From NCBI RefSeq assembly GCF_054482525.1, contig NZ_CM137006.1: a DNA stretch of 64,000 bases, one strand, 5' to 3'. The notes below the pieces were generated by a model. It was not told the DNA's origin. It saw nothing but the letters and a program-made list of their open reading frames with translations, and did no database searches. The position numbers and the translations under genes were made by a program. Of this stretch, positions 57,479-58,045 are shown one piece after another. Numbering within the stretch: position 1 is the stretch's first letter; every line of letters starts with the position of its first letter.

Positions 57479-58045
57479 TTGGCGCAAAATGGCGGCATTT
57501 ACTCATTTCTCCATCGGAGCATCTTACGCGCTATAACCACTCTCGTTTTTTCCTATTCCCATGCAGATGAAGCACTACGCAATGAACTTGAGAAGCATCT
57601 CTCCCCGCTGAAGCGAACCGGGAAGATCACAACATGGCACGATCGCCGCATCGTTCCTGGTCAGGAGTTCGAACGTCAGATCGACCACTATTTTTCGCAA
57701 GCAGATATCATCCTGATCCTGATCCTGATCCTGATCAGCAGTGACTTTATTGCTTCTGATTACTGCTATCAGGTAGAGATGAAAAACGCACTGGAACGGC
57801 ATGACCGGGGCGAGGCGGTGGTCATTCCGGTAATTTTAAGAAACTGTGCATGGCATCAGTTATAATTCGGCAGCATTATGGCGGCGACTATCGACGGTAA
57901 ACCCATCACTAAGTTTGCCACCCACGATGAAGGCTACGTTCAGGTCGTCGAGGCCGTCTCGCGTGCCATTGCCCGGATGGAAGCCAAAAAACTACAGCAA
58001 ACCATACATATCCCTTCACCGGCTCCGGCGAATCCGATCTTTTAG
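57479..58045 (+). pseudogene. TIR-domain protein gene, apparently disrupted (no in-frame ATG start, internal in-frame TAA, expanded hexanucleotide repeat)
   Basis: Frame from 57479 (TTG, no SD) encodes ...LVFSYSHADEALRNELEKHLSPLKRTGKITTWHDRRIVPGQEFERQIDHYFSQADIILILILILISSDFIASDYCYQVEMKNALERHDRGEAVVIPVILRNCAWHQL, then TAA at 57863-57865, then in-frame FGSIMAATIDGKPITKFATHDEGYVQVVEAVSRAIARMEAK... to a stop at 58043-58045; an ATG at 57489 (MAAFTHF...) is in another frame. Confidence 0.6.
57710..57736. repeat. hexanucleotide microsatellite (ATCCTG)4 containing four tandem GATC (Dam) sites
   Basis: atcctgatcctgatcctgatcctgatc inside the TIR reading frame, encoding ILILILI; GATC at 57715, 57721, 57727, 57733. 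Confidence 0.9.

Follow-up and report, generated by a model that had tools for sequence, protein, structure and literature searches.

The stretch of DNA analyzed here (the window) spans 64,000 nucleotides of contig NZ_CM137006.1, and over a 1,061-bp query around its TIR-domain gene it is 100% identical to the chromosome of Escherichia coli PCN033. This gene lies in an island whose order is a type I restriction-modification (R-M) system with two hsdM genes, the TIR-Y4lF gene, an Mrr-type restriction enzyme, Mokosh type II and an HNH endonuclease. The type I R-M genes occupy 54234-57337 on the minus strand, where two tandem hsdM genes (about 500 aa each) are found upstream of one hsdS and one hsdR, and the same arrangement recurs in a Salmonella island (L021). 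Also on the minus strand are the gene for the restriction enzyme (58481-59470), which combines an Mrr catalytic domain with an N-terminal DUF8426 and is matched by the PADLOC candidate PDC-S02 (1.5e-80), and the full-length gene for MkoC, the helicase-PLD protein of Mokosh type II (59598-63113; PADLOC, E = 0). Beyond these two genes lie the HNH endonuclease and a 125-aa hypothetical protein. On the plus strand at 46272-49909, there is an overlapping pair of genes encoding an AAA ATPase, with weak AriA, PtuA and GajA-like matches, and a 635-aa protein in which a type I methyltransferase is fused to a specificity domain. Together, the two may form another defense module adjoining the type I R-M genes.

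The TIR gene itself (57533-58296, plus strand; PPECC33_RS29570) is the remnant of a gene for a 327-aa TIR plus Y4lF protein, as is evident from alignment with intact alleles from E. coli AR_0077 and Salmonella. The PGAP annotation of PCN033 in RefSeq already labels the same interval "TIR domain-containing protein; frameshifted; internal stop". Its status as a pseudogene is thus known, and it is an ordinary one, disrupted in comparison with intact orthologs at the same locus. When we aligned the window to the Salmonella ortholog and to the E. coli alleles of EcPF15, AR_0077 and M11957, five lesions emerged with Salmonella P0001 as the reference and four with AR_0077. An initial annotation, which had judged the gene apparently inactivated from the letters of the window and had called for such an alignment, was correct in that judgment, and the alignment supplied the positions of the start, stop, repeat and deletion lesions.

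Intact relatives of the gene most often encode 327 aa, with an N-terminal TIR domain and a C-terminal domain classified in Pfam as PF27176 "Y4lF". Precomputed assignments of TIR_2 and PF27176 are present on 120/120 listed homologs across Enterobacterales, and dozens of representatives of about 320 aa in a 50%-identity cluster library match end to end at 34-54% identity. The family is therefore large and has a fixed two-domain build, which the ancestral gene of the window shared. Although the family is already represented in Pfam and PADLOC, it is functionally uncharacterised, and our literature searches for "Y4lF" and for WP_024179470 returned nothing. An AlphaFold2 (AF2) model of an intact homolog, with 97 homologs and a mean pLDDT of 89.6, comprises a TIR domain (residues 1-148), a disordered linker (about 150-185) and a C-terminal alpha-beta domain (188-326).

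The TIR domain of the intact allele is recognized by Pfam TIR_2 (9e-14). In Foldseek comparisons with an intact homolog, the fold matches the TIR domains of RPS4, Cat1, MAL, AbTir and SPARTA with probability 1.0, and is thus the same as that of Cat1, AbTir, SPARTA TIR-APAZ and the plant RPS4 and RUN1 TIRs. Cat1 also provides a weak sequence match (2.7e-7), and the TIR-Y4lF protein carries a conserved Glu after the third strand. This residue, E78 in the motif SDYCYQVEM, is nearly invariant in the 97 homologs and is present in the window. Judging from its position in the motif, E78 may be the counterpart of the catalytic Glu of characterized TIRs. Where the solved TIR effectors are partnered with CARF, Ago or NLR modules, however, the TIR-Y4lF protein has the Y4lF domain, a frataxin-like sandwich.

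The first lesion concerns the start codon. The only canonical in-frame start in the window is a TTG (57479-57481, plus strand), and the initial annotation was right that no ATG is in frame. Alignments with homologs and with the profile place this TTG 18 codons 5′ of the true N-terminus. For example, the PADLOC profile match begins at residue 20 of the TTG-start query, and nearly all listed homologs are 312-334 aa long and align from about residue 19 of that query with 94-95% coverage, a few automatically called homologs being longer. PGAP lets some truncated E. coli alleles, such as that of EcPF15, begin at TTG 57479, but no ATG-bearing homolog uses this codon. Full-length homologs likewise do not end at the stop of the window ORF, and they start with ATG rather than TTG, which removes the possibility that the window ORF has the natural extent of its relatives.

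The ancestral start corresponds to 57533-57535 (plus strand), where the window carries ATA and where Salmonella P0001, Salmonella P0019 and Serratia P0002 carry ATG. Homologs from Salmonella, Serratia and Yersinia begin MTTLVFSYSH at an ATG in exactly this position. The loss of the start is therefore a G-to-A substitution, and the 5′ frameshift that had been proposed to explain the missing ATG did not occur. We found no exact match to the ATG variant of a 61-mer among 100 E. coli genomes that carry the allele family, whereas 70 of the 100 contain the native ATA 61-mer unchanged and the other 30 have a version that differs by one base; in the single strain checked among those 30, the differing base is 57513. 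With 100/100 carriers lacking ATG, including copies annotated as intact, the change from ATG to ATA is fixed in E. coli.

Initiation at AUA has been measured at about 0.02-3% of that at AUG (bioRxiv 10.1101/063800), and silence of the full-length E. coli alleles does not follow from their ATA start alone. Substitutions assigned to the branch of E. coli (11 synonymous, 8 nonsynonymous, compared with 7 and 7 on the Salmonella branch) suggest neither enrichment for nonsynonymous change nor relaxed constraint, although the numbers are small. A Shine-Dalgarno-like GGAG (57516-57519, plus strand), located 13 nt 5′ of the ancestral start, is invariant in an alignment of upstream regions from E. coli, Salmonella and Serratia, and probably serves as the ribosome-binding sequence.

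The nearby ATG at 57489 is in another frame, as first noted, and opens only a 15-codon upstream ORF (57489-57536, plus strand; MAAFTHFSIGASYAL) that has no Shine-Dalgarno sequence and whose stop overlaps the ATA. In Salmonella P0001, the TGA of the upstream ORF overlaps the main ATG (ATGA), a layout resembling those used for translational coupling, and the one G-to-A change in E. coli converts the main ATG to ATA and the upstream TGA to TAA. We considered whether this ORF might be a conserved coupling device and rejected the idea, because its own ATG is missing from the Salmonella P0019 locus, which has ATA there, and from Serratia. The ATGA overlap is probably fortuitous.

The second lesion is the expansion of a hexamer tract (57710-57736, plus strand), in which Tandem Repeats Finder and the allele alignment reveal 4.5 copies of ATCCTG and an excess of 12 bp. 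The tract has 2.5 copies in other E. coli alleles and 1.5 in TUM14759, and its Salmonella counterpart is the imperfect ATCCTGCTCCTGATC, such that an E. coli-specific C-to-A change accounts for the perfect repeat. The additional 12 bp insert the residues LILI into a core beta-strand of the TIR domain (residues 59-64 in the AF2 model). More generally, the tract is a small mutational hot spot, and every length change that we observed is in-frame.

The third and fourth lesions are nonsense codons. Directly after the residues AWHQL, a TAA (57863-57865, plus strand) replaces GAA and truncates the protein (E107*); the T is found only in the window allele, with G in EcPF15, AR_0077, M11957 and Salmonella. 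The in-frame TAA that was first seen to split the TIR domain is thus a true nonsense mutation, with GAA in every other allele examined. Further downstream, a TAG (58043-58045, plus strand) replaces CAG (Q167*), and C is present in all other alleles examined. The initial annotation had followed TIR-like sequence in frame to 58045, and the continuation is real, but this position is not the natural end of the frame. Its TAG was missed as a nonsense codon, as were the 12-bp expansion and the fifth lesion, a frameshifting deletion of 232 bp. Allele alignments place the junction of this deletion at 58088-58089 (plus strand), with the loss of CDS nucleotides 545-776 (codons 182-259).

These lesions leave three fragments on the plus strand. 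Fragment 1 (57533-57865) holds TIR residues 1-106 together with the four inserted residues, ends at the TAA and corresponds to positions 2-106 of the ThsB1 profile. The ORF from 57479 to 57862, which contains it, matches Pfam TIR_2 (3.4e-11), Pfam TIR (8.1e-6) and PADLOC ThsB1 (2.9e-60), in agreement with the early recognition of a TIR domain here. The conserved E78 (numbered as in the intact protein) is retained in this fragment, upstream of the TAA. Fragment 2 (57866-58045) consists of the remainder of the TIR domain and the start of the linker and ends at the TAG; the 59 codons after the TAA (57866-58042) match the next part of the same ThsB1 profile (positions 108-161, E = 4.5e-17). Fragment 3 (58090-58296) retains, in a different frame, the last 68 codons of Y4lF and the native stop TAA (58294-58296), and its translation (ICYSQDNVVRNS...LIKQRMSR*) matches the C-terminus of the intact protein. 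Just 3′ of the native stop, a consensus scan detected a terminator-like hairpin with a T-run (58310-58340, plus strand), a sequence that is conserved in Salmonella. Cut at residue 106 and with four residues inserted in a core strand, the window copy cannot fold fully, and on the strength of the combined lesions the allele is unlikely to yield any functional protein.

The allele family is carried by 100 of 5,426 complete E. coli genomes, among which the lesions are unevenly distributed. We counted deletion alleles both by the presence of the 232-bp segment, which is kept in 59/100 carriers, and by coverage of at least 80% of the intact CDS, which is found in 58/100, so that about 42 carriers have the deletion. 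A comparison of alleles among strains, also called for at the outset, revealed that within these 100 carriers the two stops and the 12-bp expansion occur only in PCN033 and 19KM1776. In AR_0077 and some other strains, the frame at this location is open over 984 bp.

Decay of the gene in E. coli appears to be ongoing, as suggested by independent lesions in two other strains. TUM14759 (L027) has a nonsense codon (Q56*) and a contraction of the hexamer tract on the deletion background, and in E700025 (L026) a full-length allele has lost 1 bp from a C-run at CDS nucleotide 651 and shows four clustered amino-acid changes. RefSeq lists these two remnants as ordinary CDSs ("hypothetical protein" and a truncated TIR protein) and not as pseudogenes. 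A few E. coli genomes have a second family member that is about 80% identical. For example, the copy in UPEC_U013 (L028, 3995-4966) is annotated as intact, encodes 323 aa and resides in a different island, adjoining a DEAD-box helicase and a type I hsdM gene.

An intact ortholog lies in the island of Salmonella enterica P0001 (L021). Its protein is about 95% identical to that of the full-length AR_0077 allele, and the gene order is the same (hsdR-S-M-M, TIR-Y4lF, Mrr-type restriction enzyme, MkoC, HNH). In P0001, however, the gene begins with ATG, is free of the stops and of the deletion, and has an imperfect hexamer tract. The island is horizontally shared, and the TIR gene of its Salmonella enterica version is intact and ATG-initiated.

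P0001 also differs in having an additional 102-aa ORF downstream of the TIR gene, which is lost from every E. coli allele examined. Compared with two Salmonella islands, about 336 bp are missing near 58373-58430 from PCN033, EcPF15 and AR_0077, and the missing DNA corresponds to this ORF (L021:8061-8369 and L009:9054-9362, 75% identical to each other). The first 17 or so of its codons are left in the window; it has no PADLOC match, and we did not find it in the Serratia or more distant loci. We rejected this small ORF as a conserved partner, as it is conserved only in the two Salmonella islands and is unrelated to the downstream ORFs in Serratia and metagenomic loci.

Taken together, we consider it very likely (probability of roughly 0.9) that the window gene is a dead allele of an immune gene that stands alone and encodes two domains, TIR and Y4lF, in a shared defense island. 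The main alternative is that the gene is an orphan ThsB, the signal-producing TIR of a Thoeris system whose effector is elsewhere or has been lost, in which case the missing partner would explain the decay. The ThsB1 profile of PADLOC (PDLC00420) does match the intact protein end to end (E = 2e-153, positions 2-317 of 319), the window fragments match consecutive parts of it, and the TIR fold of the intact protein resembles those of signaling TIRs. Yet the neighborhoods of the gene argue against this alternative. Besides the window, we inspected another three E. coli alleles, Salmonella (two islands), Serratia and six more distant contigs, and in about 11 distinct contexts from Enterobacterales and more distant lineages no ThsA SIR2-SLOG, Macro-TM or other Thoeris effector gene is adjacent and no effector-like neighbor is conserved.

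The neighbors are instead varied. They are type I R-M genes in E. coli and Salmonella and SIR2-HerA and RmrT in Serratia. Among the distant contigs, some place the gene beside PDC-M25B with a PglZ fragment, an HTH protein or an ATPase, while others place it among small unannotated ORFs of a mobile element, inside a BREX operon or beside another TIR gene. The member within a BREX operon also counts against an orphaned Thoeris component. The initial annotation had remarked that no ThsA-like partner is adjacent, and this holds for the window and for every context inspected. Because the TIR-Y4lF gene is standalone in all of these contexts, the absence of ThsA is normal for the family and no sign of decay. 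The family thus appears to consist of single genes, combining sensor and NADase, that travel along with defense islands.

Moreover, there is no sequence-level match between the TIR-Y4lF protein and solved ThsB, and the conserved additional C-terminal domain, by which it also differs from ThsB, is better suited to a self-contained sensor-effector. A systematic survey of Thoeris deliberately leaves out standalone TIR proteins (bioRxiv 10.64898/2025.12.03.692087). An orphan ThsB, which has an HMM label as its only basis and fails on adjacency, is therefore quite improbable.

Even less probable is continued use of the fragments, whether as a truncated or split TIR or as one expressed conditionally, by way of readthrough or of switching at the hexamer tract. 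This might be suggested by the variation in tract copy number between strains (1.5, 2.5 and 4.5) and by the catalytic-type Glu upstream of the TAA. However, the tract cannot switch the reading frame because its length changes are in-frame, and residual use would require that five separate lesions be bypassed. TAA is an efficient stop codon, which counts against readthrough. In addition, the domain is about 148 residues long, and fragment 1, breaking off at residue 106, lacks the last third, including a long terminal helix (residues 127-148 in the model). There is also no canonical start with a Shine-Dalgarno sequence, and an Rfam scan of 57000-58700 returned no RNA element. The suggestion that the gene might be conditionally expressed is thus unsupported, given the multiple lesions and the in-frame nature of the hexamer changes.

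Finally, there is almost no chance that errors of sequencing or assembly account for the stops and indels and that the gene is intact in the living strain. Although the PCN033 assembly is an older one, the independent complete genome of the dog strain 19KM1776 is 100% identical to the window over the same 1,061 bp spanning all lesions, and thus has the 12-bp expansion and the two stops as well. In addition, the 232-bp deletion recurs in about 40 further genomes, and the lesions are of four different kinds, so that the concern over assembly error raised at the outset is answered at the level of assemblies.

For a dead allele of a standalone immune gene, the most parsimonious order of decay would begin with the change of the start codon from ATG to ATA, which all E. 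coli carriers have. The 232-bp deletion, present in about 42% of carriers, would have followed, removing half of the C-terminal domain and shifting the frame. In the lineage of PCN033, slipped-strand mispairing would then have added 12 bp within a core TIR strand, and two nonsense mutations would have arisen. Before decay, the intact protein might have been sensor and effector in one and acted alone, with the C-terminal domain sensing a phage cue and releasing the NADase activity of the TIR domain. The resulting depletion of NAD+ would stop phage growth.

This scheme fits published proposals in which standalone TIRs, as distinct from the signaling TIRs of Thoeris, are likely to be NAD+-depleting effectors (bioRxiv 10.64898/2025.12.03.692087). 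[quoted passage not shown] 2024, PMC11350192). By their description, these are similar to the TIR-Y4lF protein in being one-gene TIR proteins of E. coli chromosomes. However, TIR-V and TIR-IX have a superimposable C-terminus and differing N-termini (PMC11350192), whereas in TIR-Y4lF proteins the TIR domain is N-terminal.

It is also conceivable, though unlikely, that the later stops were selected rather than neutral. If loss of Y4lF by deletion leaves a deregulated and mildly toxic TIR NADase, then stops in the TIR domain such as E107* and Q56* might have been favored. Both of the two window-specific substitutions in the CDS are nonsense changes, compared with an expectation of 4.0% per substitution, and the deletion-bearing TUM14759 independently acquired a stop in its TIR domain. 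Nevertheless, the excess of nonsense changes is unproven, because the window was chosen for having stops, and when its allele is left out the count falls to about 1/6 and the excess disappears. Were selection of this kind to have operated, Y4lF would be an autoinhibitory sensor domain, and the locus would be a natural series for the disarming of a self-harming immune gene, with the change from ATG to ATA as the first step in turning it down.

Since RefSeq already marks the gene as a pseudogene, and Pfam and PADLOC already include its family, the significance of the locus is small. What our analysis adds is a precise map of the lesions in the TIR-Y4lF gene and the observation that the canonical start codon is missing from every E. 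coli copy, including those annotated as intact. The "ThsB" family of PADLOC represented here is in practice standalone, and caution is thus warranted when "orphan ThsB" matches are counted as Thoeris. The locus also offers natural alleles (intact with ATG, intact with ATA, C-terminally deleted and nonsense) with which the uncharacterised Y4lF domain might be probed.
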